A DNA stretch of 64,000 bases from Hyaloraphidium curvatum SAG 235-1 (taxonomy: Eukaryota > Fungi > Monoblepharomycota): the NCBI GenBank assembly GCA_025558095.1, contig JAIVFI010000001.1, positions 682,001-746,000 on the forward strand, written 5' to 3'. Positions 20,985-53,537 of this stretch are shown piece by piece. The notes beneath the pieces are model-generated. The model searched no databases. It saw only the letters and a list, made by a program, of their open reading frames with translations, and had not been told where the DNA came from. Each line of letters begins with the position of its first letter. Within the stretch, counting starts at the first letter, position 1. Both the position numbers and the translations under genes were made by a program.

Positions 20985-21028
20985 CCGCACTTTCTCAAAT
21001 CCAAGCGAAGCCAACCTCTGAGCTGTAT

Positions 21029-22881: not shown

Positions 22882-23331
22882 CTACCGCCGCCTCGGCCGG
22901 GGCTTGCCCTCACGCAACGCCTGAAAAAGGATGTCATTGCCCATGGCCCGCGCTATTTGAATCCGTGCGCGAAGGCGAGCCGTGTACCGTGCCATCATCA
23001 AACCCCCCACGTCCCATTCCTTACCGTCTGATCCTTCCGGGGGGTGCGCGCGTCGGGCGATCCGTGGGATGAAGGCTGCTGCCGCGGGTCCGAGCCGACC
23101 GTGGGTCTCTTGGCCGAGATGAACATAGGCCACCGGAGCTGGGTCCGGGATCGCAAAGCGACCGTTGAAATATTCCACCTTCTTCGCCTCAGCGTTCGCG
23201 GCCGTCACCCCAGACTCGCGCGCCGCATCCAGAGACTGCGAAATAGACGGGAGGCACACCATGTGGTCAATGATGATCGGTCGCCGGCCCGGCTCGGTGA
23301 TCACGATGTCCGTCGCTGCTAACGCACTCAC
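22882..23331 (-). mobile_element. 3' remnant of an RLE-type non-LTR retrotransposon (CRE/R2-like restriction-like endonuclease domain)
   Basis: D..I.D..., AANAEAKKVEYF, ETHGRLGPAAAAF, RIQIARAMGN match the usual RLE C-terminus pattern (AE..K..KY / ET.G.LG / ..QRGN); no RT present. Confidence 0.7.
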
Positions 23332-23449
23332 GCGGTGTTGTTCGGCTGTGCAAGATTATCTCTTCCAATAATCACGACACAAGCCGCCTTTCTGTACAAG
23401 CGCGCCGTCTTCCCCTTCCGAACCAACATCGTCCATCACCAAGATAGCA

Positions 23450-26195: not shown

Positions 26196-26239
26196 CCGCA
26201 CTTTCTCAAATCCAAGCGCAGCCAACCTCTGAGCTGTAT

Positions 26240-27918: not shown

Positions 27919-28484
27919 GGGCAAATCGCTTATTTGCACGACGGCGGAAAGAGAAGAGGAAGATTCCTTCGCCGCGGAAGCGCGGAAGCGCGTGCGGTCC
28001 GCGGCAAGTCCACAGTCTACGGTGAAGTCAACCTGGCTGGAGGAGAATTCCGGGTGCGAGGCTGCCAGTCGCGGGGTCGCGGGGTGCCTCATGTTTCTCA
28101 TCGCGCCACTTTTGCCTGCCGGCCCATCATATACGCTTCCTCAAGACCTTGATACCTCATCCTTGAACACATCGTGATATTGGCTAGCTTGCCTTATGCG
28201 GCACCGTCTTTTCGCTCGTCTCCATTCTCCCAAACTCTATCCATCAGAACCGAACGGATGCTCAGCTCTTTGTGACATGGTCCAGCAGCATCTGGATCTG
28301 GCGTCCTAGGGATTCGAGGCTGCTCGTTGGAAGCCGAACCCGCTCACGGTGCCGTGCCTGCTGTCTGCGGTCATGCCTTGGCCGGACTCGACCGTCGTCA
28401 CAATACCCAGCACACTCTCACTGGCTGCTTGTCGGCTCGAAGCATTAGAGATCCCCTTGAGTCCTTGTCTCTGGCGATCGAAAT

Positions 28485-30428
28485 GTGGTGCGAATGGAGC
28501 AAGACTTTGCTCGCGAGAGGCCTTGTGAGACTTGTGATGGGCCCGCGGTCCCGCGACCGTTCACACCACCTCCACCGATGGCCAAACCCGCGGGCGCCCC
28601 GAAGGGCGGGCGAGCGCCGCGCGCGGGGTCTTTTGCAAAGCGCGGGCGCGCGTCTGCGGGCGGCGGCGACGACACGACGGACGAGACGGTGTCGGCGGAC
28701 CACCGCGCCGCGCCGCCGGCCAAGCGCGCGCGCACCGCCGCGGCGGCCGAGGACGCCTCTCAGCCGCCGCCCGCCGCGCCGCCGCCCGCCGCGCCGCCGC
28801 TCGCCACGCCGGTGTCGAAGGCGCGCGCCGCCGCCGCCACGCCGTTCACCACCAAGTCGTCGCCCGCGCTGCGGCTGCCAACCTCGCCCGACGCCGCGCC
28901 GCCGGAATGGCAATACGTGGGCGGCGACCCCGCTTCGCACCCGCCGGGCTTCGTTCTGGCCGAGGACTCGGATCCCGAGGACGGCGACCCCGCGGAGCGC
29001 AGCGCACGCGTCGAAGCCCTCCGGACCGGCTTCGCGCGCGGCGACCTGCTCGCCCTCGTCTCGTGCTTCCCCGTGCGCGTGCAAGGCGGCGGCTGGCACA
29101 CCGAATTCGACAACGACGCCGACATCGCGGACTGGGAGGCCGTGGACCCGGCGCTGCTCCGCGGCAGGGCGTCGCCGGCCCCGAACGCGTCGCTGCTGCC
29201 CGAGATCGCCTCGCCGGAGCTCAGCTCGCAGCCCGTGCCCAAAATCGCGGCTTCCCAGCCTCAGGCGCAACCGCCGCCGCCCCCGAAGCTGCAGCCCGCC
29301 CCCATCCTGGACCGCTCCCCCCCGCCCTCGCGCCCGCACCCCACCGCCTTCGCCACGGGCTGGCGCACCGTCGAGAAGCCGAAACCGCGCGGGATCCCCG
29401 TCAGCCAGGCGGTCCAGCCTAAGGCCAAGGGGAAGCGCGTGCCTCCCCCGCCCCCGCCGGTGCTGGCGCCGAGGCCGGGCAGGCCCGCGGGGATCAAGGT
29501 CACCCCGAAGGCAACCTCGCGGCCGGCGGAGGAGCCCGAGCCGAGCTCCGCGGACCCTTTGGTGCTCTCGCCCGTGGTCGAGAAGCTCGGCAAGACGCTT
29601 GCCGAGGCTGCGAAAAAGGTCAAGTCCAAGGCGGGCACCAAGCCCAAGCAGCCGGAACCGGAACCGCCACGCCATGCCGCCGAACAACCCGCGCGCGCAT
29701 CCCCCGCCCCCGCGCACGCATCATCGCTCGGCGACACCGCCCGCGCCGTCTCCGATCCCCCCCGCGAGAGCGGGACCACCGGCACCCTCCCCCCGGCACC
29801 CCGCGCCGCAACGCCTCCCCCCCGCGAGGGCACCCCGTCCCGCCCCTCCTCTCCCCGCGCGAGGACCAGCACCCCCACCCGCCCCGTCGTGCGGCGCTTG
29901 TCGCCCACCAGCGCCTCCAAGCAGGCCAGCCGGGCCCCGCGCGGGACGAGGCGCGCGACGCTGGGCGGCGGCGTGCGCCCCGTCGCGGGGGCCAAGCGCG
30001 GCCGGCGCAGGACGGAACCCGTTCGCGGCCGCGCGGCGTTCGAGTTTTCCGAGCCCGATCACGACGAGGAGATGCCCGACGCGGACGAGATCGCGGACGA
30101 CGATCTGCCCCCGCCCGTTCCCGCGCCCGCACCGGCATCCCCGCGCAAGAAACCCCGCCCGGCGCCGCCGGACCACGGCTGGCCGCCGCTCTCGGACCCG
30201 TACTTCTTCCCCAACTACCCTTCCCCCGCCCCGACCCCCCTGCCGGACCCCTCCCTCGCGGCGGGCCTGCAAGCCGCGGCGGCGCTGCTGGCGCGCGAGG
30301 CCGGGTACGCCAAGGAGCTCGAGGATGCGGAGAGGAGGGAGAGGGAGCGCGAGGCGGAGAGGGTGAGGAGGCGGGCGGCGATGGAGGGCGACGAGGAGGA
30401 CGAGCTTGTGGCGGCGGGGCCGGCGTAG
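28485..30428 (+). CDS. Pro/Ala-rich, largely disordered hypothetical protein
   Basis: 647-aa ORF with GC3 bias, a small ordered segment (WQYVGG...GWHTEFD), and a charged C-terminal helix; start uncertain. Confidence 0.6.
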   Translation: MVRMEQDFARERPCETCDGPAVPRPFTPPPPMAKPAGAPKGGRAPRAGSFAKRGRASAGGGDDTTDETVSADHRAAPPAKRARTAAAAEDASQPPPAAPPPAAPPLATPVSKARAAAATPFTTKSSPALRLPTSPDAAPPEWQYVGGDPASHPPGFVLAEDSDPEDGDPAERSARVEALRTGFARGDLLALVSCFPVRVQGGGWHTEFDNDADIADWEAVDPALLRGRASPAPNASLLPEIASPELSSQPVPKIAASQPQAQPPPPPKLQPAPILDRSPPPSRPHPTAFATGWRTVEKPKPRGIPVSQAVQPKAKGKRVPPPPPPVLAPRPGRPAGIKVTPKATSRPAEEPEPSSADPLVLSPVVEKLGKTLAEAAKKVKSKAGTKPKQPEPEPPRHAAEQPARASPAPAHASSLGDTARAVSDPPRESGTTGTLPPAPRAATPPPREGTPSRPSSPRARTSTPTRPVVRRLSPTSASKQASRAPRGTRRATLGGGVRPVAGAKRGRRRTEPVRGRAAFEFSEPDHDEEMPDADEIADDDLPPPVPAPAPASPRKKPRPAPPDHGWPPLSDPYFFPNYPSPAPTPLPDPSLAAGLQAAAALLAREAGYAKELEDAERREREREAERVRRRAAMEGDEEDELVAAGPA

Positions 30429-30469
30429 CTTTCCTGGTTGGTTGGGCAAGTAGATTGATGCGCAGACAG

Positions 30470-31288
30470 TTACCGGTGCGGTTTGCCGCGGGGAGGGGAG
30501 AGGTCCGATAGCACCGCCTCCGGCACCCCCGCCCTCCTGAGCACGCGCACCAACCCCTCCCTGTCCCCCTCCTCCGAAACGATGAAACCGGCCTCCACGT
30601 CCCCGCCAGGCAAGGGCGGCCCGTCGTGCAGGACGTCCATCATCTTCTCCCTGCACTTCCTCCCCGCGCTGTCCACATCGACCGTCTCGGTCCGGTGCCT
30701 CCTCAGGTACTCCCCGCACCCCGCCGCGCTCCCGAGCAGCAGGATGAGTATCAGCCTCCCCCTGAAATACACCCCGCCGCGCAGCCCCAGCTCCGAAGCC
30801 CACCGCCGTATCAGCGCGCAGTAGGGCGCGGGGCGGCGCATGTGGTGCAGCCGGAGCAGGAGGAGCCGCGCCGCTTCCTGCCCGCCCGGTTGCGGTTGCG
30901 CGTCGGGTTCCGGAGGAGCAGGGGGTTCGAGGCGGAGGGAATCGCATGCCGCCGCGACGGCATCGGGGAACGCGTCCAAGTCGCCCCCCGCGGCGTCGAA
31001 CGCGAGGCGGGCGGCGTGCATCGCCCTCCCCGCCGCCCCGTTGTCCAACCCGTCGCGCTCGGTCCTGACTTCCTTCAGTTCGCACACCCCATCGGACGAG
31101 TACGCGGCGGAGAGGGTGCCGAGCAAGCCGCCCTCCCCGTCGTCGGAGAGGTCCCGGAGGTTCACGACCAGGAGCGAGCCGGAGCCGCGGGGGTGCACGC
31201 CGAGGTCGGAGGAGTAGATGGCGCGGAGGAGGGTGAGGGGGTCGGAGTCAAGGTCGGGAAGGGGATCCGGGGGAGATTGGGAGGGCAT
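30470..31288 (-). CDS. RWDD3: RWDD3/RSUME-like protein (RWD-like N-terminus + DUF1115)
   Basis: LHHMR...RWASELGLRG...GRLILILLLG...EYL...TETVDVDSAGRKCREKMMDVL closely follows the RWDD3 C-terminal domain. Confidence 0.8.
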   Translation of the reverse strand: MPSQSPPDPLPDLDSDPLTLLRAIYSSDLGVHPRGSGSLLVVNLRDLSDDGEGGLLGTLSAAYSSDGVCELKEVRTERDGLDNGAAGRAMHAARLAFDAAGGDLDAFPDAVAAACDSLRLEPPAPPEPDAQPQPGGQEAARLLLLRLHHMRRPAPYCALIRRWASELGLRGGVYFRGRLILILLLGSAAGCGEYLRRHRTETVDVDSAGRKCREKMMDVLHDGPPLPGGDVEAGFIVSEEGDREGLVRVLRRAGVPEAVLSDLSPPRGKPHR

Positions 31289-31416
31289 GCGATGCGGATT
31301 TGCGGTGGAGAAGGGATGTTTGGGCGGGCGTCTGTGTCGGCGGCGCATGGGACGGGATATCGGGGTGACAGACATCGACCAGGTAAGAAAAGATGATCAT
31401 TGCGCGTGCCAGATCG

Positions 31417-33150
31417 TCACGTGTCCCTATCATCTTCCCAGAGCTGCCTGTACGCCTCCTTGTGCAGCGTCAAGTGGCAGCACTCGGAGCACTGGCAGAT
31501 GCCATCCTCTTTGCAGGAGAACCTCCCATAGCCAGACTCGTGCCGTACGTACCTCGAAGGTTTGCCCGATGCGTTCACAAGCCATCCCCGGGGCAAGCCT
31601 CTGCGCTTCACGTCCAAATCCATGCAAGACTGACAGTTCAGAATGCTTCCACCGTTGCAGGTGCCAGACCGACAGCATGTATCACAACTGAAGCCCGTGT
31701 CTTTCCCACAGCAAAACTTGTTGCTGTTCCCCAGCAGAAAACGTCTGGTGCCATCGATGATAATGGGCACATGAGGCTCAGCTGCCCGAACAATTGCTGC
31801 AATACCGGGCTTGGTCTGCACTTCAGACTCTTCGCCGTCGGGAAGGACAAGCACGAGCTCCTTTCCGCTTGTGCTGGCCTTGAGTCGGATCTGACCCAGC
31901 TGAAGAGTGTTTGCATCCGGAAAGAACGCGGACAGATCCGGTGCTTTCTCCTTTAGCTCGCTCAGCTCCACGGTAAGGTTGTCCAATCGCTGTGCCAAAC
32001 GCTCGACACCGGCACTCTGCGAATCCACGCGCTCCTTCAGCTCCGAAAAGACGTCCGGGCCTTCAATGAGAGCGGCATCCGGATCGTCCTGCTGACAAGC
32101 ACCAATAACAAGCACCTCCTCGGGCACAACTGTCCCCAGGTGCGTCACCCATCGTGACCTATCCCTGTCTGATAGCTGCAGTTGGTCGAATGCGTGAGCC
32201 AATCCGTCTCCACTCCCGTAATCCGAGCTCATGTGGGCAAAATAAGCTGCCTTCTGTCCAGGAGTAAGCCCACGGAGAACCCGCGTCAGCCTCCGCTCGT
32301 CGCCTGTCCGCGTGATGCGCGCCACGTGCGCAACCCCAAGTGCGGGGTTGGAGGAAGCCCAGATGCGAATCAAGGAATCCCGAATGTCTCGACCATCGGA
32401 GAACTTCCATCGTTCGTCGTTTTCGGTGCCCCTGCCCTCTTCAATGCTGCCACCTTCCAGCACAATCCGCGCATCACCCAAGCTCTTCACCACGGTTCGA
32501 TGATTCTGCACGAACGGGTGCAATCCGGTCTCGGTGACCCAGGCCAGCGAGATGTAACGCGCGTTGCCGACGTAGGCAGCGTACGGCTGGAGCATGTGCC
32601 AACCATCAAGGCCGGGGACGTCCCGGAGGGCCTGCATTGCCAACTCAGCGCTTTCGTTGCGCCTGCTGTACCCGTTCTGCTGATCCTCGAGGCCCGAAGA
32701 CATCGCGCTGTATCCACTGTCATGGTCGGCACGGCTGTGGCTCCGTTCGCGGTTCTCGGCATTGCGGTCCCTCGCGGCGCTGGATCCCGAGGACGCCGAG
32801 CTGGCCCCGCCCCTTCCCGACGCTCCGAACATGCCGAATCGCGCTTTGCCTTCCGCAAACGCATCGTTGCGCTGGTGGTTTTCGCTCGAGCGCTGCGTAT
32901 CGCTCGTCGTCGTGTCCCTGCTCGTCCCTGTGTCCTCGTTGAAGCGCTCGCGCGCCGTCTCGGAATCGTGCCTAAAGGACCTTCCCTCCGACCGCCCCGA
33001 GGCTTCGGCACCGGCACGGTTGATCTTGACGCTGCCCGGGCGCAGGCCGTCGGCGTGCTGGCTCCAGAGCACCACGAGCGGGCGCGATGTGGCGTTGGCC
33101 ACCGACCACTGCGGGGGCTCGTCGAGCTGGCGCACCGCGGCCTGGGCCAT
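31417..33150 (-). CDS. Hypothetical protein with coiled coil and C-terminal Cys-rich (HECTD4-like repeat) domain
   Basis: 577-aa intronless ORF; FCCGK...GTCNGG...NCQSC...LPRGWLVNASG...FSC...CQCSEC; start uncertain. Confidence 0.65.
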   Translation of the reverse strand: MAQAAVRQLDEPPQWSVANATSRPLVVLWSQHADGLRPGSVKINRAGAEASGRSEGRSFRHDSETARERFNEDTGTSRDTTTSDTQRSSENHQRNDAFAEGKARFGMFGASGRGGASSASSGSSAARDRNAENRERSHSRADHDSGYSAMSSGLEDQQNGYSRRNESAELAMQALRDVPGLDGWHMLQPYAAYVGNARYISLAWVTETGLHPFVQNHRTVVKSLGDARIVLEGGSIEEGRGTENDERWKFSDGRDIRDSLIRIWASSNPALGVAHVARITRTGDERRLTRVLRGLTPGQKAAYFAHMSSDYGSGDGLAHAFDQLQLSDRDRSRWVTHLGTVVPEEVLVIGACQQDDPDAALIEGPDVFSELKERVDSQSAGVERLAQRLDNLTVELSELKEKAPDLSAFFPDANTLQLGQIRLKASTSGKELVLVLPDGEESEVQTKPGIAAIVRAAEPHVPIIIDGTRRFLLGNSNKFCCGKDTGFSCDTCCRSGTCNGGSILNCQSCMDLDVKRRGLPRGWLVNASGKPSRYVRHESGYGRFSCKEDGICQCSECCHLTLHKEAYRQLWEDDRDT

Positions 33151-33774
33151 TGCGAAGAAGTGGTAGAGTTGCGATGCCGGTGGTTAACGACGGCGGAATC
33201 TCTGGATTCGCTCGACGGAGCGGCGGGAATGTTGCGTAGCGCAAGGGACGAACTGACACAATCGGTCACGTGTTTCTGCTCCATCGATCGATCACTCGCT
33301 AACAAGAGCGCAAATTGCCAAACAAGCAGCTTATGCTTTGCAGGAAGCTGGACGCAAAGTGTGGCTCGGAAAACGGAGGACTTGCTTGGAACGTCCTTCC
33401 CTCAAAGGGTGCTGAATGAGAGAGCCCCATCCGGGCCAGATTTGGCGTCGCCGGCTGATATGGTCGTGTTGCTCCAGCCTGAGCAGCAGAAGGCTGCAAC
33501 AGGATGGAAACGCAGTGCCGGTCTGACGGCAGGCGCGGACAGTAGTCCATTCGAATTCTCCTTGCTAACCGGAGCCCGACGACGGTTCGCACGGTCCACT
33601 CGTGCCGGCGAGACCGGGAAGTTGCCCGGGTTAGACAGGGGCCCGCGGATCAATAGACGCGGAGGTCTATTGCAGCCGGCAGCGTGGGGGGTGTCTTCGC
33701 GCGCGCTCATTCGCCCCCACCCTCCCACCGTTCGGCGAATCAGCGCATCCAAGTCGCCAAGGCGGGCTGGCCTG

Positions 33775-33854
33775 CCGCCTGGGCGCATCGTGGCAGAACA
33801 CTGCCCACAGCCCCCCCGCCTGGGCGCATCGTGGCAGAACACTGCCCACAGCCC
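33775..33854. repeat. Tandem duplication, 41-bp period x2
   Basis: CCGCCTGGGCGCATCGTGGCAGAACACTGCCCACAGCCC at 33775 and 33816. Confidence 0.9.
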
Positions 33855-34039
33855 AACCGCGCTGGTTCGACCGATCGGGTCGACAGAGAGGACACGAGTG
33901 GACCGGAACGATCGACGCTGTTGATCACGCAGACGGACGCACTACGCCGCCGCGAATACTGCGAGTACCGCGCGAGGCCTCACTGGGAGACTTGTTCGCG
34001 AAGCCGCTGTTACGCGGAGCCACGACCCAAGCGCCCGAG

Positions 34040-35675
34040 ATGCCCGCCGGAGACCTCGTCGACTTCACCCCCGACGAATGGCTCGCCATCCTTCCCGCCG
34101 CCGTCGCCGCGCCGCGCCGCACGCCCGGCTCGGGGCCCTTGACGTCGCCTACCGATCCCGCTGCTCTGGCGCGCTCGGAGCGCCCGCTGACGCCCACGGC
34201 CCTCCGTCGCGAGGTCGGCGCGCTCAGTGGGCACCTCGCGGCTTGGATCGGCCTGCAGATGCTGCTGTCGCCGCTCAACGCGCGTTCCGGCCTGCGGTTT
34301 TTGGCCTTTACCGTCGCCGCCCTCGCGCTTACCCCCGCGCCTGCGATCCTCAACGACGGGCGGTTGTCCACTCGAGCTCTGGCCTGCGGCATTGCAGGAA
34401 GCTGGGTGGTCTTCCTTTTTTCCACTGTCGGCCTCATCCGAGCGACGTTCAGGGCAACGTACTTCGGATCGTCGCGAAACGCACGGCGAGGAGCCAACAG
34501 CCGCACCCCAGCACCGGTCGCCGCCCCGGATATCGATCTCGGATCCCATCCCCTGGCTACGATCGCCAGATGGAAGGAGCTCCTCGACCTCCAAGGCCCC
34601 GCGGGCGCTGCGGATGAAGCCGTTGGATCGGACGCAGTTCAACTCGGGCACATTCCCTCGGAGCTCGTGGCCCACCGGGACGGTGATCCGATGTGCCCTT
34701 GCGGCCTGCAATCGTGTTCGGGCGCCGTAGCTGCGCGTGCTGCGTGGTCTCGCGCCGCCGAGGTATGCACCCGCATGGTGCTCGCGATGACCGGGATGAG
34801 CCTCTTTCCGTACACTGCCGCCGTCACCTTCGCTGGCCCGTTCTGGTCTGCCTGGTGGTGGGCTCTTTTAGGCGCATTCTACTACGCAATGGATGCGTTC
34901 TTTTACCTCACCGGCACACCTGGCAGATTCAGTGCCTCGTTTCCAGCGATGGGTCTGGCAGAGAAGCTTCATTTCAGGGCGATGTCTCTCGCCCTCGATT
35001 CTCTACTGGATCGCTTGGATTCCCGGCTTACGAGCACCGACGGTGAGGCTGAGCAGGACGAAAAAGCTCGTACAGATGGGGAGGAAAACTCCGAAGAGCT
35101 TTACATACGGCTACATCTGCTGCTCTCGAGGATCTGGGAGAGGAGGATACCACACCTTTTTACGGGCGACCGCACGAGCTTTTCCCTGTTGTGCTCCGGA
35201 GTGGCTATCGCCGTTATTCTGAACCTTGTGAGTGCAATCATAAGTACCACAGTTTCGCCTCGGCTGATCCGCGGTCGTCGCCTCGTTGCAGATCGGCGGA
35301 CTCTGCATCCCGGCATGGCTCGTTCTCATCACCGCCTGGGTCTTCGTCATCTTCCTTCTCGACTTTGTGGCGATCGCCGCCTCCAACTCGCAGATCCGCT
35401 CCGTCGTCGCGCTCTACGTGACAGCCCGCCAGGCCCTCCGCCGCATGGCGCTCCTGCACCGCACGCACCCCCTCGCCTCCGAGCTCGACAGGCACGACCG
35501 CATGCTTTCATCCCTCTTGGACGTCCGCGGGCTCGAGATGCGGTTCTGGGGCGTCCCGGTCGGGTACGGCACCGTGAGGACGGTCGCGGCGACGATGCTG
35601 ACGGTCGGGTTCGCGCTGTGGGGGCTGGCGAGGGGGAGCGGGATCTATCTCACGATGGAGTCGGTCTGCTACTGA
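34040..35675 (+). CDS. Putative 7-TM receptor/ion-channel-like protein, copy 3
   Basis: Close paralogue of copy 1; phase-0 intron 35228-35291; the upstream ATG used by copies 1/2 is absent so start placed at MPAGDL. Confidence 0.8.
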
Positions 35676-35904
35676 CCGTCTTTCCAGATGGCGTTCTGCC
35701 TCCGGCACAATTGAACCCGCGGATGAGTTCTATAGTTAAAGCAGATGAGTGGAAGGCTTAGTCCAGCTTATTCAGGCACAAAAATTAGTTGCATGATGAA
35801 CTTGGCTGCCTGCCCAATCAAGCTGGGCACGCGCGGATTTCCACGTAGAAAGGTCGCCTTCGGCTCAGCCATTCGACGTTCCCCGCGCTCCGTGACCAAC
35901 GACC

Positions 35905-39469: not shown

Positions 39470-39700
39470 AAGTAGCACGCACTTCAACAGATGGAAGGAT
39501 AACCTTGGACAACTTTGGCGCTTTGACGCTTTTGTCATTGTAAATATTGCTTCTCGGTTGGGAAGCTTTCGTGCTTCGTCGAGGACCGTGATTGGATTAG
39601 ATGAAACGATGCTCTTGCCTGCGGGCATGGGAGACAGGGGCGAGAGAGGCGCGTGTCCTCGAGTTTAGTCGCACACGTTCCACAGCTTCCTTCTGCCTCG

Positions 39701-41383
39701 ATGTTGCCTGCGGGCGACGACACCGAGTCCGGCGGACTTGAGCTTGGCAAATGGGCGGACGACCCGGGGACGGACGACCGGGCGGAAGGGCCCGGAGAAG
39801 CGCGGCGGAGGCGCGTTCTCGCGGGCTCCGCGGCAGCGGGACCTCCGTCGTCGGCCGAGCGCAGCGACTTCACGCCGGAGGAATGGCTCGTTCTTTTTCC
39901 ATCGCCGCTGCCTCCTTTGGACGCGTTTGGAGGCATTGGCTTCTCGCAGCACGCCGATCCGGCCGCGGCTCTGCGTGCAAGCGAGCCGCTCACTGCGGAC
40001 GCAATGCTACGCGAATTTGACCACGCGGTCCTGCATCTCGCGGCGATATTGGGACTCCGCTCGCCACTAGTATGGAACACATGGCTTGCCGCCGCGGCCT
40101 TCGCGCTGAACGGCGCCATGTCGCTCGCACTCCTGGGCACCGCGGCAGCATGGAACGACGGGCGCTTCACGCCGACGGCGATCGGCGTCGGGATTGCAGC
40201 CGTGGCCCTCTTGTTCGCGTCCTTGTTTACGATCTTTGCGAGTGCTGCCGTTAGTTGGCCACCGATCTCGAGTGTGATGGACTTCGTTGCGCCGGCTGGC
40301 ATGTTTCGGTGGCTTCGCGCAGTGCGGAGAACAGACAACCGGCAGTTGCAAGCCAAGGGCAATGCTTCCGCCGCCGTCGGTGGCAACCTCCTTCAGCACC
40401 TGCCGGACGATCCAGACTGCCCTTGTTCGAGCTGCTTGCCGAAAGTGCAGCTCTTTGCTGGGGTATTGGCCTTGCTCGACGAGATATCGAACGGTGCCTT
40501 CTTCATTACCATGCTCTTCATGATGGTCTTCACGCCCTACGTCACGTTTGGCGGTCGGATTTGGACCACCTGGTGGAGTGCGTGCATCGGGGTCTTGAAC
40601 GGTAACGTGCTTGCCGCATCTCAAATCCTTAACATTCACGCGTAGCCCTCTACAACAGCTCTTTTCGTGCTCTCGTTTGTTTTCAACACTTCCGGGCGCT
40701 TCTTAACGATCGCCAACTTGGCTTACGCGGCTCTCGAACGCCGCCTTCTGCGACGCGCAACGACACTTGCTATGCAAGACCTCATTGCGGCCTGTCACGA
40801 CGCCGCATCAGAGGCGGACAACTCGGACGGATTCCGCTTGCTTCGCGGCACTGGCTGGCTCTATGCGCACCTGCACTACCGGTTTGCGAGCGTCTGTCGC
40901 GTAAGGGACAAGCAGGACCAGGCCTTCGTTAGCAGGCTCGTGGCGATCACCGGTTTCCCCGCCGCCATCATTGGCATTCTGCTTTCGATCACGACGGGAC
41001 GATGCTTACCAGTCTGGCTGCTCATCTTTCTGCCCACACAAGTGCTTTACTTTACCGTGAACGCCGTCCACGTGGCGTCGCGAAACGCCCTCCTCGACAC
41101 GGTCGCCGGCGTCTACCGCGACGCGCAGCGCGAATTGCGCATGCTCGCCGTAGCCGCGGGCCCGGGCCCGCTTGCCGACGCGATCGGGCTGCACGACGCC
41201 GCGATCGCGTCGTTTCTGGAGGCTTCGAGGTACCGCGCCAAGATGTTCGGGTTCACGGTCGGATACGGGACCGTGCGAACGTTCCTGGTGACGCTGGTGA
41301 CGGTCGCGGTGGCCCTGTGGGGCGTGCTCAGGGGGTTTGGCGTGTTTGTGACTGTGGAGAGCTTCTGTCCGTCGGAACCGTGA
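39701..41383 (+). CDS. Putative 7-TM receptor/ion-channel-like protein, copy 4 (divergent)
   Basis: FTPEEWL, DPAAALRASEPLT, NDGRF, HLPDDPDCPCSSC, IWTTWW, LYAHLH, GRCLP, FGFTVGYGTVRTFLVTL, VESFC; intron 40602-40658. Confidence 0.8.
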
Positions 41384-42315: not shown

Positions 42316-43470
42316 ATGGCCCCGAAACCGCTAGGCGTCGGCATCATCGGCGGGTCGCCCGACCGCGGGTGGGCCGTGGACGCGCACATCCCGGCGCTCG
42401 ACGCGCTCGGGGAGCTCTACAAGCTCACGGCCGTGGCGACGAGCCGGCCCGAGTCCGCCAAGGCCGCGGAGCAAAAGTTCGGAGTCAAAGCCTACTCGGA
42501 CCACCGCGAGCTCGTTGCTGATCCCGAGGTGGACGTGGTGGTGGTGTCGGTCAAGGTGCCGGAGCACTTCAAGCTCGTCTCGTCGGCGCTCGAGTCGGGG
42601 AAGCGCGTCATCTGCGAATGGCCGCTGGGCAACGGGGCTGCCGAGGCGGCCAAGCTCGCCGAGGAGGCCGCGAAGCGCGGGATCCCGAACCTGGTCGGGC
42701 TCCAGGCGCGTTCGGCGCCCGCCTTCAACTACATCCGCGATTTGATCAGGGAAGGCTTCGTCGGCGAGATCATGTCGACCTCGGTGATCGGCAGCGGCAA
42801 CTTCCCGGCCGAAGCCTCCGTGCCGAGCTTCTACTCGTACCTCCTGGACAGGAAGAACGGCGCCACGACCCTCACGATCCCGTTCTCGCACTTCACTGAC
42901 GCGATGCAGTACGCCCTGGGCAGGGAGTTCGTCGAGGTATCTGCGAACCTCGCCGTGCGGCGTCCCAAGGTGCCCGTGGTCGGCGGCGGCGAGCTGGAAG
43001 CCACCGCACACGACCAGATCTCCGTCTCGGGCGTGCTCGAGGGCGGCGCCCCCGCGACGGTCGCTTTCAAGTTTTACCGGTCGCCCGGGGCCAACTTTTT
43101 GTGGGAAATCAACGGGACCAAGGGGGACCTGAGCATCACCGGACCCTCGGGCCACGTTCAGATGTTTGACGTCGAGATCAAAGGCAGCCAGCACGGCAAA
43201 GCGCTGGAAGCCATGCCGGTGCCGGAAAAGTTCCACTGGGTTCCCGCGGGGGTGCCCAAGGGCTCGCCCTTCAACGTCGCGCAGGCGTACGTCCAGGTCG
43301 CGGACGACTGGGCGGGGAAGGAGGTGGCGGGAAGGTCGCCCGCGCCGACGTTTGCGGACGCGGTGAAGCAGCACCGGTTTGTGGAGGCGATCGAGGCGGC
43401 CGCCGAGACGGGGATCAAGCACGTCAGGGGCAGCGACGGGCTGTGGAAGCCGGCGGCGGCGAAGATATAG
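42316..43470 (+). CDS. Gfo/Idh/MocA (Gal80-like) oxidoreductase
   Basis: GWAVDAHIPAL, SVKVPEH, CEWPLG, GLQAR, TLTIPFSH, WEINGTKGDL, PTFADA; intronless; C-terminal AKI. Confidence 0.92.
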   Translation: MAPKPLGVGIIGGSPDRGWAVDAHIPALDALGELYKLTAVATSRPESAKAAEQKFGVKAYSDHRELVADPEVDVVVVSVKVPEHFKLVSSALESGKRVICEWPLGNGAAEAAKLAEEAAKRGIPNLVGLQARSAPAFNYIRDLIREGFVGEIMSTSVIGSGNFPAEASVPSFYSYLLDRKNGATTLTIPFSHFTDAMQYALGREFVEVSANLAVRRPKVPVVGGGELEATAHDQISVSGVLEGGAPATVAFKFYRSPGANFLWEINGTKGDLSITGPSGHVQMFDVEIKGSQHGKALEAMPVPEKFHWVPAGVPKGSPFNVAQAYVQVADDWAGKEVAGRSPAPTFADAVKQHRFVEAIEAAAETGIKHVRGSDGLWKPAAAKI

Positions 43471-43495: not shown

Positions 43496-45485
43496 TCACT
43501 CCGTTTTCGCCCGCTTGGCCTCCCGTTCACCCTCCTCGTTTTCCGTCCCGCTGCCCTCGGATGACTCTACCACGTCCACCGGCTCCGTCGCCGCCTCCCG
43601 CGGCACCTTCCCGCCCATATCCCTTTCGAACATGTCGATGTACGACTGCCGCCCGCCCGCGGCCATGGCCTCGCCCACTTTGCCCACGTACCGCGTCCGC
43701 GGGTCGATCCCCACCGAGGCGTCCGAGGGCACCGTGTCGGCCGTCGACGCCTTGAGCGCGCGGAAGAGCGCGGCGTGGTCCGCGAGCAGCTGCTCTTCGG
43801 CCTTTGCGAGGGAGGCGGGGTCGGCTCCAGCAGCGTGTGCCTTGAGCAGGGGCTGCAACCGATCACCGACGATCCACATGGCGTCCAGAGCGCTCAAGCA
43901 GGCATGTGCACAGCCCGTTCCGAGGGGCCAGAAGGGCTCAAGAAGACTGGGGAAGCGGGGGAAGGCAGTGGCGGCGGCGGGTGTGTGTGGCGGGTCGTGT
44001 CACGAGTTCACGGAAGCGAGGTCAGAACCAAAGCATAGAAAGGTGCAAGCTACCGACGAACCTATCGCCGAGCGGGCATGCCAGAACGATCCTGTCGTTG
44101 TACCTTACGAGCTTGCTCGGTTCCGTCGCGTTGCTCTTCTCGCTGAAGTCGAATATCGCAACGTCGTTCGACTTTCCGTCCACCCCCGTCATGAACTTTG
44201 CCTCCTCCGGAATGCCAACGGCCAGCGCGACCTTCCTCACGCACTCCTCGAGCTTTGCAGGGTCCACGTTCGAGGGCGCCAGTATCTTGTCCATGGTTGA
44301 AAAGTCCTCGCGAAGCACGCCCTGCCGGAGCAGGTTCGCCTCGCGGATGCACATGACGAGGTAGTGGGTCTCATCCTGATAATAGACGAGGTTCTCGAGC
44401 GCGACGCCGTGCTCGCGCTCGATCTCGCCGAACCACTGCTTATTCAGATAGGACACGTACCCGCCCTTCTTCTGGATCTTCTTGCACGCGAGCTCCACGC
44501 GCGGGTCCTCGCGCGAAAAGTTGCAGGTGATGCCGATCGCCTGCGTCGGGCGGAACCCGGCGCGGCCGAAACCCAGGGCGGCGGTGAGCTTGGAGTGCTC
44601 GCCCGTGCAGCAGAGGAGCACGTTGCAGGGGTACGGGTCCAGCGACGGGTCGGAGAACTTCGGGTCCAGCATGGCGGGCGGCTTGCTGTCCTCGTGGCCG
44701 GGCTCGGCGCCCGGTTCCGGTGCCGCCGCGGGCCATTCGAACGAGACCTCAGGGTGGACCTCGGCGCCGACCAGCAGGGCCAGCTTCAGGAGCGCCAGCT
44801 GGAGCCGCCGGATGGCGATGTGCTCGATCCCGCCGACGCCGAACTTGGCAAAGACGTGCTTGAGACCGATCTTCTTCAGGTCCGCCATGGTCCATGGCCA
44901 CAAATGCAATACGTTGTGCCTTGTAAAGGTGGCCCGCTTCTCGACAACCTTTACCTGCCTGCAGCGCAGGAAGCAGGCCTCGATTGCCGCGCGAAGTCCA
45001 GAGGGGCCGGCGCCGACGCAGAGCACGACGGCGTCGGGCGCGCGCTTGATCGCGTGCGCGTCGCGGAAGTTGGCCTCGAGCGTGTCAAAGAGCGCCTTTG
45101 CCGAGTAGCTCCCCGGCGCCGTCGCGACGAGCAGCTCGGCGAACCCGCGCGGGAGCGCGTCGTCCTTTGTCAGCTCCTCGACGCGGGATGCGAGGCCGTC
45201 GGAGGAGACAGCCGCGCGTGCAGCAGTCCGGTACGCGTCAAAAGCGCCCACGATCGATGCCACGGGGCCATCGTTGTTCAGAAACTCGCCAAAGAGCGCG
45301 ATCGGGTTGCCCGGCGGGCCGGACGCGTCTTCCGAAGGCGCCGGAGCGGGTGCGTCGGCCGGGCCAGGCGGGGGATCGGCGGGCGTCAGATGCGGCTTCG
45401 GGGGCACCGGCGGCGGCGACTTTGCCGCCAGCAGCGATACGGGCTTCGGAGGCACGGGCGGCGCGGCGGCCTGTCGGTCCTCCAT
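43496..45485 (-). CDS. MICAL-type FAD monooxygenase domain protein (stand-alone)
   Basis: GAGPSGLRAAIEA, VVEKRATFTRHNVLHLWPW, HIAIRRLQLALLK, LENLVYYQDETHYLVM, DVAIFDF; after intron 43947-44061, GDSLLEPFWPLGTGCAH. Confidence 0.88.
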
Positions 45486-45935
45486 GCCGCGTCCGGGAGA
45501 GCGGCGAGCGGAGCGGGCGGAGTCTTCGGCGGCGGCACACGCAAAACTGCGTTCTCCCAATGTCCCCAATGGGATTGGCGCCTCCTTCCCAGGTCCACAC
45601 GTGGGCCGCAACCACTATGAAATCCATGCGCAAGGCCGAACTAGGTATGTTCGCCGTTGCGTCGCCCAGCATGCGCGATCGAGGCGTCCGTGACCGAGAT
45701 TGCCGGCGGCCTTCGACAACCGGATCTGATCTTCTTCTGCGCAAATCAGCACGCCGGCAGCTCCTGCGATCGGCCTTCCATCCCAAACCGGGTTTGCTGG
45801 GCCTGCTGGCGCAATCTCGGGCTAGAGTCCGGACCGGGTGCTCCCAGAACACCCGGAAAGCCGCGCCGCGTCGGTAAACAAGCCGACGCCGGCACCTTTC
45901 GCGTCACAACGCGTTCGGGCCACGCGTCCACCGAC

Positions 45936-48900
45936 ATGGACCTCCACCGCCGGTCGCGCATCGGCGGCGGGTTCGCCGGCAACGGCGCCGTGAACGGCGA
46001 GTACGACGCCGACTCGGACGCGGAGCTCTCGACGGCCAAGACGCCGGCGCTCAAGCGGTCCAAGGCCGCAAAGCGCTACGTCGCCGAGCGCGCCGAGTCG
46101 GACGGCTGGGAGCGGCCGACGGCCGTGCTTTTGGCCGCCGTGTTCGCCACGTTCCTGTTCATCCACTGGCACTTTTGGAGGACGCCGGCGCCGGTGGCCG
46201 CCGCGGGAGCCTACGCGCGCGGCAACGTGCCCGTGTTCTCGGAGGAGATCGCCCGCGGGCACATCAGGCACCTGTCGGAGACAATCGGCTTCCGGCAGGT
46301 CGGCACGCGGGCCCACGAGGACGCGGTGCAGTGGACGGCCGCGGAGCTCGAGCGCATCCGTGCCGCCGCGCTGGAGCGCGCCAAAGAGGGCAGCTACGAG
46401 CCCCCCGTCTTCGAGGTCGAGGTCCTGCGGAGCACGGGCTCGCACCGCTTCGACATCGCGGGCAAGATGGTGCACAAGCTCTACCACGGCATCCCCTCGG
46501 TGCTCGTCCGGATCTCGTCGCAAAAGCTGGACGGCGCGCTGCCCCGCGAGGAGCGCTGGGGGCTGCCCTCGGTCATCCTCAACTCCCATTTGGACACCAA
46601 CTACGGTTCGGCCGGCGCCGCGGACGCCGCCTCGGGGATCGCCGTCCTTCTCGAAACCGCTCGGATCCTCTCGCACCGCCCCACCTCCTCGTGGCGCAAC
46701 CCCGCCGTTGTCCTGTTCAACGGCGCCGAAGAATCGCTGCAGGACGCGTCGCACGCCTTCATGCTCTCCTCGCCGCACAACCGCTCCGCGCGCGCGCTGA
46801 TCAACCTCGAGGCGTGCGGGCAGGGAGGCAGGGAGGCGCTGTTCCAGGTCAACTCGCGCGGCATGGCCGAGGCGTACAAGCGCGGGGGGAGGAACTTCCA
46901 CGGGTCGAGCCTGGCCAACGACGTCTTTGGCACGGGCTTGGTGCTCAGCGATACCGATTTCCGCCAGTTCATGGCCTACGGCGGGGACGAGGTCGTCGGG
47001 GTCGACCTGGCCTACTACACCAACTCGTTCGTCTACCACACCATGAAGGACGTGGAGCGGACCATGGGCGTCGGGTCGGTCCAACACATGGGCGAGAACG
47101 CGGCGGGGATGGCGGGGTACCTGGTCGGCGAGGACCTGTCGGATCCCAAGTTCAGGAGGAAGACCGACTTCCTGCACTTTGACTTTCTCGGTGGGCTTTT
47201 CTCGCCGTCGAGCTGCGCAACTTGCTGGCTGACGTCTCGTCGCCAATTCCAGGGAGCTTCATCCTCTATTCGTGGAGCTTCGCCGTCCCGTTCCACCTCA
47301 CCGTGGCCGCCGCCGGCGTCGCGATCTGGCACGCGCACTACCGCCGCGAGCTCGCCGCGCACCCCAAGCTCCGGCAGGGCGTCAAGGCCTCCCACTTTGC
47401 CGCCGCCGCCTCGCTCGTCCTCTCGATGGGCCTCGCGGCCGCCGGCGCCTCCTCGGCCAACCTGCTGCACAAGCTGCTGGGCGTCAGGAGCATGGTCTGG
47501 TTCTCGCGGGCGTGGCACCCGGCCATCCTGTTCGGCTCCGCGGCGCTGGCCGGGATCGCCGTGGGGCAGCACCTCGCGAGGATCTTTGTCGCCGCGCGGT
47601 GGGAGCCGCTGGCCAGGAGCGCGGCGATCGAAGCCCGGACCATACACGCGCTGCTGCTGGACTACTCGCTGCTGTTTGCGGTGGCGACGCTGGCGGGGGT
47701 CGGCAGCAGCTTCCTGCTCCTGGTGCAGGTGCTCGGCCTGATGGCCGCGTGCCTCGCCGCGCAGTTTGTCAGCCCCGGTCAGGCGCCCAAGACGGGTGCA
47801 TTGGTGCACCAGGAGCCCACATACCCGGCTCGCCCTCCCTTGGCCTCGTACCTGCTGCAGCTGGCCATCTCGGGGCCGCTCACCATGGGATACGCCATCT
47901 CGATGTCGGAGCTCTTTGTGCCACTCCTCGGCCGCATCGGCCACGCCGCCCCCGCGGACGCCATCGCCGCCGGTCTAGGCGTCGTCATCTCGGGCCTCGT
48001 TGCCGTCGTGCACGCCCCCTTCATCCACCGCTTCGGCGAGCGGCACGGGCGCAACACCGCCCTCGTGCTCACCGTCCTCGCCGGTTTCATCGCCCTCTAC
48101 TACTCCACCAAGTTCCCGTTCGACGACAAGGCGCCGAAGCGGCTGTACGTGCAGCACCGGCTCAACGTGACCTCGGGCGAGTCCTTCCTCGACATTGCCC
48201 ACGCGGACCGGGAGGCGAGGGCGCTGGACGAGGCCGTGGCGGCGGTCGAGGAGCGGATGGGGATCTGGAGCGGGCAGCCGGCGTCGGAGCGGATACAGGC
48301 GCAGACCGAGGCGGACCATGCGGCCAAGGTGCTCGAGTGGGAGGCGCTTTACCCGTTCAAGTGGGTTCGATGCAGATTGGGCGTCGCAGGAGCTTGACTG
48401 ATTGCGCGTCTTGCCAGCTACTTCCTCAACTCGATCAGGATCCCTGCCGCGACGGTGCTGGCGGCACTCGGGGAGCCGTACTTCGCCCCCGAATCGAGGC
48501 CCGCCGAGCCCTCGGTGCACCTCCTCTCCTCGACCTGGAACGCCGGGTCGGGCACACGGGACGTGCACCTCGAGTTCCGCCACAAGGGCCTCATCTCGTG
48601 CACCGCGTCCCTGGGCGGCGAGGTGATCGCGTGGGACCTGGACTCGCCGATACCCGAGGACGAGGACTCGGACCCGTGGAACCCCTCGGTGCGGTTCAAG
48701 CGCGTGCGGCACGTCATCCGCACCGTGGGCGGGCTGGACGAGGATACCTTCACGGTCCGCGCGACCGTGAAGCACGATTCGGAGGATGCCAAGCTGCGCG
48801 TGGACTTCTGGGGGCTGGACCGGAGGTCCTGGGGCGAGGGCTCGGGCGATTTCGGGCCGCACGGGGACAAGGGGACCGGGTGGGAGGGCGGCGAGGTGCT

Positions 48901-48979
48901 GCGCTTTGCGAGGACGGCGCTGCCCCAGTGGACGGCCCCGATGCTCGTTGCCAGCGTTGGCGGGGTGTGGTGGTTCTAG
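45936..48979 (+). CDS. M28 metallopeptidase, ERMP1/Pff1-like, multi-TM; 2 introns
   Basis: LNSHLDT, GAADAASG, FNGAEE, NLEACG, SDTDF, YHTMKD, TM block, FPFDDKAPKR. Confidence 0.93.
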
Positions 48980-49035: not shown

Positions 49036-50837
49036 CTACATGTGCGTCGGACAGATCGATTCCATCGTGACGTAGATCCCTGAAATGCGGAAGATCGACC
49101 AGAGGCCGACCAACAATGTGAAAACTGTGATGAGCACGTTGCGCGCTACCATCGCATCCACGGCGAACCCGAGCAGCTTCCCCCTGAACCGTTCTACGCT
49201 CAGGAAAGATTCCAGGGCGAGGTCATGGCGCCGCGCCATTTGCAGAGCCACGCGCCGGGACGGATCCGAGCGCAGCGCCATCGTCCTCAGCTCCTTGCGC
49301 GCGGAGAGGTAGAGGTCCGTGATCACGGTGATCTGCGAATTGCTGACGGCGATGTTGACCACGTCGATCGTGAGGATCAGGATCGCAAAGCAGGTGATTC
49401 CCAGGAACCACCCGGTAACGCACATCCCAGCGATCTGTAGCAAGAATGGTCAAGATCGAGAGTCCACGACAGCCGGAATTGACGCGACAAAACTCACGAT
49501 GTTGAGGATCAAATTAATCGGGACCATGAAAAACGTCAGCACCAGTATGACTGCACCCGAGGCCAGGAGAGGTAGCCGCTCCTCCCACGACGCGGTGAGC
49601 GAGTCGTGCAGCTTGACGTACAGCTCCTCGCTCTGCTCCCCGTGCGCCGCATCCACCTCCGGCCCGAACAAGGCCTTTCGCTGCCGGTCCAGCATGGAGC
49701 TAAGCGCAATGCTCATCGCACGGTGATGCAAACGCATGGAGATGCGGAGCAGAGAAATGTTGCCGCTGAAGCGGGCGGTGAGGTTCACGACAAAGTACAA
49801 GGCGCATGTGGCGACTTCGACCGAGTTGGATCAGAACAGCGAGGTGCATTTTCGAGCTCGAACCTACCACTGAGGACTCCAAAAGTTGCAAAGTACCACG
49901 TGGTCCAGAATCTCGGTCCGAATGATACAAGGGAAGTGTACCCCAGAGCGATCGCGTATGTGAAAAAGCACAGTGAAAATCTGATGGCATACTCCATCAC
50001 CCTCAAGTGTCCGCTTTGCTTCAGTAAAGCGCCCGCGCAGCTCGGCAGGATGCACGGGCAGAGCGGATCCGTGTGATCGTGGCGGACGAGCTTCGAGGCT
50101 CCCTCGGCCTGCAGCTCCCCTTTCTCCTCTTTCGAAGGGGCGTTTTCCATTTCCACGTCCGCACCCGCTTCGATGAGCTGGACCCATCGAACTGCCGGCC
50201 CGAGTGGATGCCGGCTCAGGTCCCCAGCAGCGGCCGCTCGGCCCGGTTCAGGGCGGGTCACGGTTGCGCGCAGACCGATAAACAGCGGGCCAATGACCAG
50301 AGCCAACAGAAAGACGCTGATATTGATGGTCCCTGGAAACGGCAAGGGGCCCATTAGCGTAGGAGAGGGCCGCGGGTGCCTCAACCCACCAATGATGAGC
50401 TGGCTCGTCCCGAAGCGGCCGTCGTTGAGGACCCACATGGCCACCACCACTCCGATCGTGGGCACCAGATACAGAAGGTATCGCTCCAACATTTTGGCTG
50501 AGAAGGGCGCCAGCCACAGCTGGAAGGCGCAAATGAGCCGCTGGGGAGTGCTGCCCCGCAGTCCGCGCAGGAGCGCTTCCTCGTTCAGCGGGTCCGAGAG
50601 GCGCAGGTGCTCGGCAGGATCATAGGGCCGATATTCGCCGAGCGACGGTGGTCTCGGCGGCCGGGAGGGAAACAGGGTGAGCCATTCCCGGGGCGTGAAC
50701 GAGGCCGGCGCGGACGGGGGCGCGGAAGACAGGGTGTCCGCGCCGTTCAGTGCGTCGTCGTCGGGTGCGCTGCTGCGCCTGAAGGATAGCGTGCCCGACG
50801 TGCCGGGCATGGTCGCGGACTCGGAATGGCCGTCCAT
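49036..50837 (-). CDS. Putative 7-TM receptor/ion-channel-like protein, copy 5 (divergent); 3 introns
   Basis: FTPREWL, DPAEHLRLSDPL, LNDGRF, HPL...RW, HDHTDPLCPCILPSC, FWTTWY, LHHRAMSIAL, EELYVKLH, shared intron before IAGMC, AVSNSQI, LLGFAVD, MESIC. Confidence 0.8.
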
Positions 50838-50978
50838 TGTCTTGTGACTGGAGGCGGTTCTACGTGGAAGAGCGATTTCTATTTGGAACGCGGGGTCCCT
50901 GCGCAAAGCTGGCTGGCGCTGACATCATTTTGCCACGCTGAAGTCGACCAGCGTTGAATGCATGTTGCTTCGGCTCAA

Positions 50979-52147: not shown

Positions 52148-53537
52148 ATGACCGCCCGCGCTGTTCCCGCCGACGCGTCGGCAGCCGCCACCGATCCTGC
52201 CGTCCTGCAATGGATGGTCGGCTCCCCGCCTCCTCCCGAGAAAGTCATCAGGCACAGCGACGTGGAGGCCAACGGACTACCGCGCTTCTTTTCTTTCCCG
52301 TGGTGCCGATGGGGATTCGCTAGCCTCAGACAGCTGTACGTTGCTTGTTCAACGTGTCTTCCGTGAAGCTCGGGCTGAACCGCAGTTCTCGAAGTGTTCC
52401 CACGGTGAAGATCTCTCGTGGCGATGGCCCAGTTTCGGAGGTTCCGAGAGGCGAAAGAACGGACCTCGACGACGTCAAGTACACGCCACTGGGGTCGTCC
52501 GAGCAGCTCACCTGGAAAGACTCGCTGGACCGCAACTTCACGGACGCCATTGTGATCCTTCACAAAGGCACGATCGTCTACGAGAAGTACTTCGGGATCA
52601 TGGCTCCGGACCGTGAGCACATGGCTGCCAGCGTCACCAAATCCTTCACGGGGATGCTCGCCTCGGTGCTCGTTCACGAGGGCGTGATCGACGAGAATGC
52701 GCTCGTGACCAAGTATGTCCCCGAGCTCGAGGGGTGGGTCATCCGCTCGTGGTTAGCTTCACCGCCGCTCACCACGCTTTGTTCAGGTCGGCTTTCGGCG
52801 ACGCCACCGTACGAAACGTGATGGACATGAGAACCGGGGTTGCCTACACCGAGGACTACGCCGATCCCGATGCGGGCATCTGGGAGGCGCTGCGCGCCAC
52901 GAACTTCTTCCCCCGGCCGGCGGGCTACTCTGGCGCCAGGTCGACCTACGAGTTCCTCGTGAAGCTGAAGAAGAACGGTCCCCACGGCGCGGACTTCAAG
53001 TACAAGACCGTCAACACGGACGTCCTCGGCTGGATCATCCGCCGGGCGACCGGGAAACCCTACGTGCAGCTGCTCTCGGAGCGGTTCTGGGCGCCTCTCG
53101 GATGCGAACGCGACGCATCGATCTCGGTGGACGAGGAAGGCACCGAGTTTGCCGGGGGCGGCCTGATGCCCTGCCTCCGGGATCTGGCCAGGGCCGGCGA
53201 AATGCTCCGGCTGGGTGGCAAGTTCAACGGACGGCAGATCCTGCCCGCGGCCGTGGTCGAGGACATCCGGCACGGCGGCTCGCCCGAGGCGTTCAAGGCG
53301 TTCGGGGCGCCAACGATGCCCGGGGGCGCGTACCGCTCGCAGTTCTGGGTGACCAACAACGAGCACGGGTGCTACGCAGCTCGCGGCGTCCATGGGCAGG
53401 GCATCTGGGTGGACCCAAAGGCGGACGTGGTGATTGCCCGGTTTGCCTCGCACCCAATCTCGACCAACGCGCAGATTGATCCGCACACCCTTCCCGCCTA
53501 TGTGGCCGTAGCAAAGCACTTGGCGCTCAAGCATTGA
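52148..53537 (+). CDS. Beta-lactamase-fold serine hydrolase, 6-aminohexanoate-dimer hydrolase (NylB)-like; 2 introns
   Basis: WMVGSPPP, ASVTKS (SxxK), MDMRTG, FKYKTVNTDVLGW, YRSQFW, ARGVHGQ. Confidence 0.9.

Follow-up and report, generated by a model that had tools for sequence, protein, structure and literature searches.

MICALs have been described as multidomain proteins of animals, with a CH domain that "always follows" the monooxygenase (MO) domain (PMC4792234). The same source states that the animal MO can bind and oxidise F-actin in vitro without CH, though with lower efficiency than when CH is present, and that the active-site cavity of MICAL is larger than that of PHBH and could take a protein substrate. 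A basic patch in the MICAL N-terminal bundle was proposed to bind acidic actin (PMC3645671), and an autoinhibitory domain was reported to block the shallow cleft of MICAL1 (PMC11315924, PMC11557892). PxxP motifs of animal MICALs act as ligands of SH3 proteins, and MICAL1 acts on CaMKII too (PMC9982024). The origin of the MICAL class was placed on the animal stem by a survey that searched for LIM domains and found no MICAL in three unicellular relatives (PMC3305314).

Here, a MICAL-type gene was analysed in a window of 64,000 nucleotides (the whole stretch of DNA under study, to which all positions refer) from Hyaloraphidium curvatum, an early-diverging fungus without a flagellum that belongs in or beside the Monoblepharidomycetes (PMC6899921).

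Gene structure and surroundings

The gene occupies positions 45485–43496 of the minus strand and consists of two exons, with an ATG at 45485, a TGA at 43498–43496 and a product of 624 aa (Table 1). Many candidate introns of the GT/GC..AG type keep the reading frame, and only the one at 44061–43947 (115 nt) restores the last MICAL motif, which the first-pass annotation had described as hidden by an intron of this length. Contig 1 of the run X1 skips exactly the same 115 bases (junction 43946/44062, CT..AC on the plus strand). On both sides of the skip the contig is colinear with the DNA, upstream as far as 45649 and downstream through the TGA, and no other differences were found over the gene. 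X1 was taken to be RNA by guess, its record bearing no RNA label, and this is backed by its intron skips: 14 skips of the canonical type were found in the 20 kb between 34000 and 53900, and the 13 besides that of the MICAL-type gene are 48–90 nt long. Coverage of the gene by the runs X2 and X3 is incomplete. An in-frame stop (45614–45612) lies upstream of the ATG and, together with the colinearity of the X1 contig through the TGA, supports both the start and the end of the gene. Thus, this is a real, well-formed gene.

Table 1. Features of the MICAL-type gene, in order along the minus strand of the window.
Feature	Position	Strand	Support
5' untranslated stretch covered by X1, containing the in-frame stop and one further upstream ATG	45486..45649	-	
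Exon 1, coding, Met1 to part of Ser475	44062..45485	-	ORF and intron analysis; X1 contig cover from 45649
PPVPPKP motif 1, residues 9–15, in the low-confidence N-terminal arm	45441..45461	-	
PPVPPKP motif 2, residues 25–31	45393..45413	-	
MICAL monooxygenase domain, residues ~58–576, including the N-terminal helical bundle	43643..45314	-	Predicted model and PF25413
GxGxxG FAD-binding motif, residues 158–163	44997..45014	-	Active-site mapping
Thr294 at the position of the DG-motif aspartate (Ala218 in MICAL1)	44604..44606	-	
GD..FWP..G motif with the flavin-stacking Trp481 (MICAL1 Trp400), split by the intron	43913..44069	-	
GT..AG intron, 115 nt, phase 2, in the Ser475 codon	43947..44061	-	Intron analysis; skipped in the X1 contig
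Exon 2, coding, to Glu624 and TGA	43496..43946	-	ORF and intron analysis; X1 contig
Tail motif, residues 591–597; EAATEP shared with P0002	43580..43600	-	
REAKRAK, residues 616–622, predicted class-2 monopartite nuclear localisation signal	43505..43525	-	

The database copy of the product (P0001, named a hypothetical protein of Hyaloraphidium curvatum) is identical over its 623 aa, with only the last Glu absent, and is flagged "partial" by NCBI. No CH, LIM or bMERB domain was found in the protein using Pfam, and a tblastn comparison of five MICAL tails with the whole window gave no match at E<0.1. Since the transcript also reaches the stop codon, the earlier description of a stand-alone protein without CH, LIM or coiled-coil domains holds. 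The NCBI flag would fit an animal-type MICAL that is truncated, inactive or derived from contamination, an explanation which we consider largely refuted and very improbable: the spliced contig reads through the stop, the gene lies on a 1.6-Mb contig, its GC content is similar to that found elsewhere in the window, the window encodes no MICAL tail and the catalytic residues are intact. In addition, one close relative, P0002 (62–63% identical), ends alike, and chytrid homologues are also devoid of CH.

The gene converges with an intronless-looking gene for a Gfo/Idh/MocA (Gal80-like) oxidoreductase (42316–43470, +), with 25 bases between the two stops. One X1 contig spans both genes, which may reflect overlapping 3' UTRs, and a second Gfo/Idh/MocA ORF was noted at 11847–13271. 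The divergent neighbour encodes an M28 peptidase with an ERMP1 transmembrane domain (45936–48979, +), with introns near 47189–47252 and 48360–48418. Two divergent sets of hydrophobic ORFs at 39605–41383 (+) and 49036–50924 (-) look by eye like paralogous membrane proteins; their N- and C-terminal stretches are similar, and no Pfam match was found in the parts scanned. A region of about 18 kb (17200–35760) contains many long overlapping ORFs, including ones of 766 aa (20571–22871, -) and 708 aa (33635–35761, +), with no Pfam match among those scanned. An ORF with a beta-lactamase fold (PF00144, 67.8 bits) at 52617–53537 (+) is part of an intron-containing gene and is probably a member of the esterase/peptidase-type family.

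Monooxygenase fold and flavin site

Five hallmark MICAL motifs are encoded on the minus strand, namely GAGPSGLRAAIE, EKRATFTRHNVLHLWP, HIAIRRLQ, LENLVYYQDETHYLVM and, spanning the intron, GDSLLEPFWPLGTG; all five had been named in the first-pass annotation. The Pfam family PF25413 (MICAL MO family) matched residues 316–446 with 91.1 bits against a curated cut-off of 27. The phmmer search of PDB sequences returned five matches at E<=1, all of them MICAL1 or MICAL3, and the best value (3e-69, MICAL1) means that the motif match is not due to chance. The structure was predicted from a 93-row alignment (pLDDT 84.4, pTM 0.84; low confidence at residues 1–44 and 586–623), and a comparison of the model with the MICAL MO, which had been suggested earlier, gave Z scores of up to 40.3. 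This highest value was obtained for the alignment of residues 58–576 with residues 7–479 of 2BRY (449 residues at an rmsd of 2.4), which extends over the N-terminal bundle that is specific to MICAL and absent from PHBH. Eight MICAL entries gave Z scores of 34–40, versus 22.3 for the next flavin monooxygenase, and the Foldseek E value of the model was ~1e-36 for MICAL versus 1e-10 for the next family. The C-terminal tail could be aligned, with trimming off, to the autoinhibitory helix region of 8Y6K/9EWY, and this alignment was rejected with a tail pLDDT of <50. Phmmer, Foldseek and Z scores all favour MICAL over generic aromatic hydroxylases, so the protein belongs to the MICAL MO domain family; it lies outside the animal multidomain MICAL family.

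It could be asked whether the enzyme is instead a PHBH-class hydroxylase of small molecules, related to MICAL by common descent only. The fold does lie within the PHBH superfamily (Z 20–22 to many members), the Atlas clusters next in similarity after the MICAL ones consist of generic FAD_binding_3 proteins, and the downstream neighbour encodes a Gfo/Idh/MocA oxidoreductase. However, structural identity is 33–35% to MICAL and 11–18% to aromatic hydroxylases, little can be concluded from gene adjacency when a fungal genome is compact, and the PxxPxK and NLS-like motifs of the protein and the signalling fusions of its homologues (see below) would be atypical of metabolic hydroxylases. We therefore regard this explanation as improbable. 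No PKS/NRPS-type cluster was found by Pfam among the 70 window ORFs scanned, which was counted in favour of a protein-methionine monooxygenase, the reading we prefer.

The active site was mapped using the MICAL1-like row P0072 as the numbering reference, which agrees with published MICAL1 numbers except for a swapped 404/405 in one review. Most of the positions checked were taken from section 2.5 of PMC3645671, F399 and P401 came from other MICAL sources and E114 was added by us. All 18 FAD and active-site positions match P0072 (18/18; GxGxxG, N123, H126, I157, N243, T291, Y293, D360, D393, F399 and W400 included), as do 5/7 positions of the NADPH patch. G150, V285, F399 and P401 of the shallow cleft are unchanged, as are 84 of the 116 positions that are >=95% conserved in 80 CH-bearing rows. 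The substrate lobe of the chytrid clade has residues of its own, for example Tyr at MICAL1 Ile264 in 12/12 rows.

The aspartate of the DG motif is replaced by Thr. This Asp is missing in 12/13 rows of the same clade and present in 68/81 CH-bearing rows; it is also absent from MICAL1 (Ala), so Thr294 is compatible with membership of the MICAL MO family. Basal NADPH use of MICAL1 with Ala at this position is ~12-fold higher than with restored Asp, and actin is still oxidised directly (PMC5772675). These data, together with the missing autoinhibitory domain, would suit a targeted NADPH oxidase that supplies local H2O2 for redox signalling and has no directly oxidised substrate. We find such a role quite unlikely, as MICAL1 without the DG Asp retains its direct action on actin, its effect on NADPH use is known for Ala and the residue here is Thr, and the four shallow-cleft residues are conserved.

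Putative actin-facing surface and terminal motifs

The surface that would face actin was compared with that of CH-bearing proteins. Counted from sequence, the net charge of the N-terminal bundle is -4, versus a median of +6 in the CH-bearing rows (range -1 to +11; 0/75 at or below -3), and that of the whole MO is -7 versus a median of +6 (2/76 at or below -5). Only 1/10 basic-patch positions in residues 11–86 is basic here, in a region where the alignment is 21% identical. Three segments that are protected by F-actin in MICAL1 according to HDX (PMC11557892; the boundaries of the beta11–beta12 segment were set in this analysis) match the consensus of CH-bearing rows at 55%, 38% and 21%. The match to the same consensus is 37% over the whole domain of this protein, and CH-bearing rows reach 79–91% for the protected segments. 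The surface evidence, derived from sequence comparison, is thus against strong conservation of the actin interface. The MO of P0023, a CH-bearing row named mical2b, is also negative (-5), so the acidic charge weakens the case for actin and does not settle the matter. According to PMC9982024, every actin isoform retains Met44/47, and Met44 is essential in yeast; canonical MsrBs occur widely among fungi (10.1101/2021.02.26.433065). The checks of these residues and of MsrB that the first-pass annotation had proposed would therefore say little.

The same chemistry may accordingly serve a target other than actin, a methionine or cysteine of a possibly basic or nuclear protein, and specificity for actin may be a later gain of the animal line, accompanying the basic bundle and the CH domain. 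An intact core beneath a surface of reversed charge and diverged actin-facing segments, the clade's own substrate-lobe residues (the Tyr at MICAL1 Ile264) and the predicted nuclear import motif would all agree with this, and the action of MICAL1 on CaMKII as a second substrate means that actin is not the sole possible target. However, the proposal comes with no candidate substrate, and the mical2b row makes charge indecisive. We judge it unlikely, with some weight nevertheless.

Both ends of the protein carry short motifs outside the MO domain. PPVPPKP matches what we take to be the class II SH3-ligand consensus, and the two copies reported near the N-terminus by the first-pass annotation were found at residues 9–15 and 25–31. 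The pattern [PR]xxKR[^DE][KR], presumably the consensus of a class-2 monopartite NLS, is present at the C-terminus and is carried by the C-terminus of P0002 as well. P0002 also keeps both Px[VIL]PPKP motifs despite large flanking indels. Among 171 homologues, paired Px[VIL]PPKP motifs occur in 2/171 and the NLS pattern in the last 15 residues in 2/171, in both cases the Hyaloraphidium protein and P0002; anywhere in the sequence, the NLS pattern occurs in 14/171. When the tail was shuffled, the pattern appeared in the last 15 residues ~3 times in 10,000. The patterns were picked after the sequences had been seen and the two carriers are related, so these counts show conservation, not function. 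The kept PxxPxK motifs fit recruitment by SH3 proteins. The predicted C-terminal nuclear-import motif, the Thr at the DG-motif Asp and the acidic N-terminal bundle are features newly noted here. In P0038, a protein of the same clade, a basic KRRR stretch begins at residue 5 and could be another nuclear import signal.

We propose, tentatively and with a little less than even confidence, that the protein is an NADPH/FAD protein-methionine monooxygenase that probably acts on actin, is constitutively active and is targeted through SH3 domains and importin. The gene structure, the MICAL fold of the model, the intact flavin site and the absence of CH, LIM and bMERB were observed; the chemistry and the substrate are inferred from animal MICALs. 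As in these, NADPH would reduce FAD, the flavin would swing in past Trp481, and the C4a-hydroperoxide would oxidise a methionine on a flexible loop, such as Met44/47 of the actin D-loop, and thereby loosen filaments. The absence of a bMERB tail and the Thr in place of the DG-motif Asp could lead to constitutive activity with a raised leak of H2O2. SH3 adaptors may bind the two PxxPxK motifs and replace CH-based targeting, and importin may bind the C-terminal basic motif, so that control would be exerted by location.

Distribution, phylogeny and comparison with known systems

The first-pass annotation had treated the stand-alone MO as singular. This part does not stand, as CH-less MO proteins are widespread in microbial eukaryotes. 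A search of representative sequences gave 293 clusters at E<=1e-30 and 848 at 1e-10, of which the best 150 were considered. The alignment of 171 MO-bearing proteins comprised 81 with a CH match and 90 without one, some of the latter being fragments or animal-like. Holders include the chytrids Gonapodya sp., Geranomyces, Phlyctochytrium and Nowakowskiella, the Amoebozoa Balamuthia, Planoprotostelium, Protostelium, Thecamoeba and a "Phypoly" transcript (read as Physarum), and also Thecamonas, Rigifila, Monosiga, Noctiluca, Yihiella and Cymbomonas. An MO without the CH-LIM-bMERB tail is thus found in dinoflagellates and a green alga too. Where a transcriptome comes from a predator, it may contain prey sequence. 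In an Atlas cluster of 97 members (99% PF25413), the commonest recorded phylum is Oomycota. A profile search with the chytrid alignment returned mostly animal proteins among the 120 of 629 matches listed.

No CH domain was detected by Pfam in any named non-animal protein scanned; other domains were. EF-hands are fused to the MICAL MO in P0003, P0028 and P0047 (Balamuthia and relatives), which suggests calcium-regulated versions of the enzyme. P0154 of Monosiga brevicollis (XP_001746374.1) has a PH domain and a C-terminal MICAL MO. It contains no LIM domain, so the LIM-based survey (PMC3305314), which covered this species, could not detect it. A LIM domain is present in P0157, and WW plus USP8-dimer domains in P0026. 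Such signalling-type modules were counted in favour of the preferred reading of a targeted protein-methionine monooxygenase.

Several of the non-animal CH-less proteins already bear the automatic name "mical" in NCBI and are in this sense on record. The literature matches listed included no paper on MICAL MO domains from outside animals, though gene-family tables in supplements of comparative-genomics studies could list such proteins, and no activity data for a non-animal MO were found in the literature searched. In the available excerpts, MICAL appears only in a reference of PMC12050087 and is not mentioned in 10.1101/211789.

Outside eukaryotic sequence collections, a narrow pattern scan of prokaryote genomes gave 22 matches, none confirmed, and a second one gave 3 matches, of which 1 passed tblastn to the query; this stretch could be contamination or a distant flavoprotein. 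Narrow pattern scans of viral contigs gave 8 and 46 matches, none confirmed, and BFVD gave only generic matches at flavoprotein level (TM <=0.33). In metagenomes, 185/438 matches were confirmed and 80 kept. None of the 50 near-complete metagenome domains placed on a tree fell in the chytrid clade, and no MO-bearing ORF of the metagenome loci had a terminal NLS-like or Px[VIL]PPKP motif.

A FastTree phylogeny of all 171 rows resolved a clade of 13 rows (support 1.0) in which P0001 falls with chytrid, protosteloid and further proteins. The support of the chytrid and protosteloid clade was 87 in a quick mixture-model tree of 56 chosen rows and 98/95 in an LG+G4 tree of 32 rows, for which 24 of the 56 rows, including the long-branched P0155, were dropped for speed. 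In the latter tree, seven animal-type rows grouped with Thecamonas and Rigifila (97/97). In these trees, a check suggested in the first-pass annotation, the protein sits in the chytrid and protosteloid clade and not next to the animal MICALs. A constraint joining the chytrid clade with the animals was not rejected on the unrooted tree (p-AU 0.143), and one uniting six named amoebozoan proteins was rejected (p-AU 5e-25); both groupings were named after the trees had been seen, and the trees have no outgroup. The closest grouping of the Gonapodya protein is with the two protosteloid amoebae (100/99) and not with Hyaloraphidium. In this group (P0030, P0004, P0035), the MOs of Protostelium and Planoprotostelium nest with the Gonapodya protein, apart from other Amoebozoa, which points to hidden paralogy or fungus–amoeba transfer.

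As the first-pass annotation had proposed, the results bear on MICAL origins: the MO domain is spread over several eukaryotic supergroups, and by its sequence distribution the enzyme domain likely predates animals. It could further be assumed that an ancient, pan-eukaryotic actin-oxidising MO acquired targeting modules lineage by lineage, which would be CH-LIM-bMERB in animals, EF-hands in amoebae and PH in the choanoflagellate. The Hyaloraphidium form would then be minimal, uninhibited and steered by SH3 proteins and nuclear import, and would disassemble nuclear and cortical actin convergently with MICAL2. We rate this scenario as a whole as rather unlikely. The MO is far more widespread than the animal-centred literature consulted indicates, and the importance of the result rests more on the pattern across the family than on this one gene. 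Natural MO-only enzymes make the origin of redox actin disassembly directly testable. If they act on actin, a new post-translational regulator of actin would be added for fungi and protists; if they do not, the ancestral substrate would be exposed and the automatic "[F-actin]-monooxygenase" labels would be wrong.

A comparison with the PHBH class (PHBH, MHPCO, rifampicin monooxygenase and flavin halogenases) indicated that only the core fold and the GxGxxG and GD motifs are in common: Z is <=22.3 over ~300 aligned residues with 9–18% identity, the bundle lies outside the match and there is no sequence match at E<=1. The relatives in the same clade, namely the proteins of Gonapodya sp. JEL0774 (KAJ3344317.1), Geranomyces variabilis, Phlyctochytrium arcticum (KAI9105830.1), Nowakowskiella (KAJ3120734.1), Planoprotostelium and Protostelium, have no CH, LIM or bMERB either, and some are auto-named "mical". 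The chytrid and protosteloid relatives are 31–38% identical and are without the two Px[VIL]PPKP motifs and the terminal NLS-like motif, and the Nowakowskiella proteins have long C-terminal tails without a Pfam match.

With MICAL2, which lacks a coiled-coil domain (PMC11557892) and for which a role in nuclear actin is given in a reference title in PMC9982024, the protein shares the absence of an autoinhibitory tail and a possible nuclear location, here predicted from the motif alone. However, CH and LIM are kept in MICAL2, and any likeness would be convergent. With animal MICAL1/2/3 and Drosophila Mical (2BRY, 4TXI, 6ICI, 9EWY, 8Y6K), it has in common the whole MO with its bundle, the FAD/NADPH-site residues, the loop equivalent to that of Trp400 and the PxxP ligands. 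Unlike the animal MICALs, which have more than 1000 residues, the ~624-aa Hyaloraphidium protein includes none of the CH, LIM and bMERB domains, its PxxP motifs are N-terminal and not C-terminal to the MO, its bundle is acidic, Thr occupies the DG motif and it belongs to a separate clade. The protein thus represents a known enzyme family in a new domain architecture, and a role of the protein in actin regulation is plausible.
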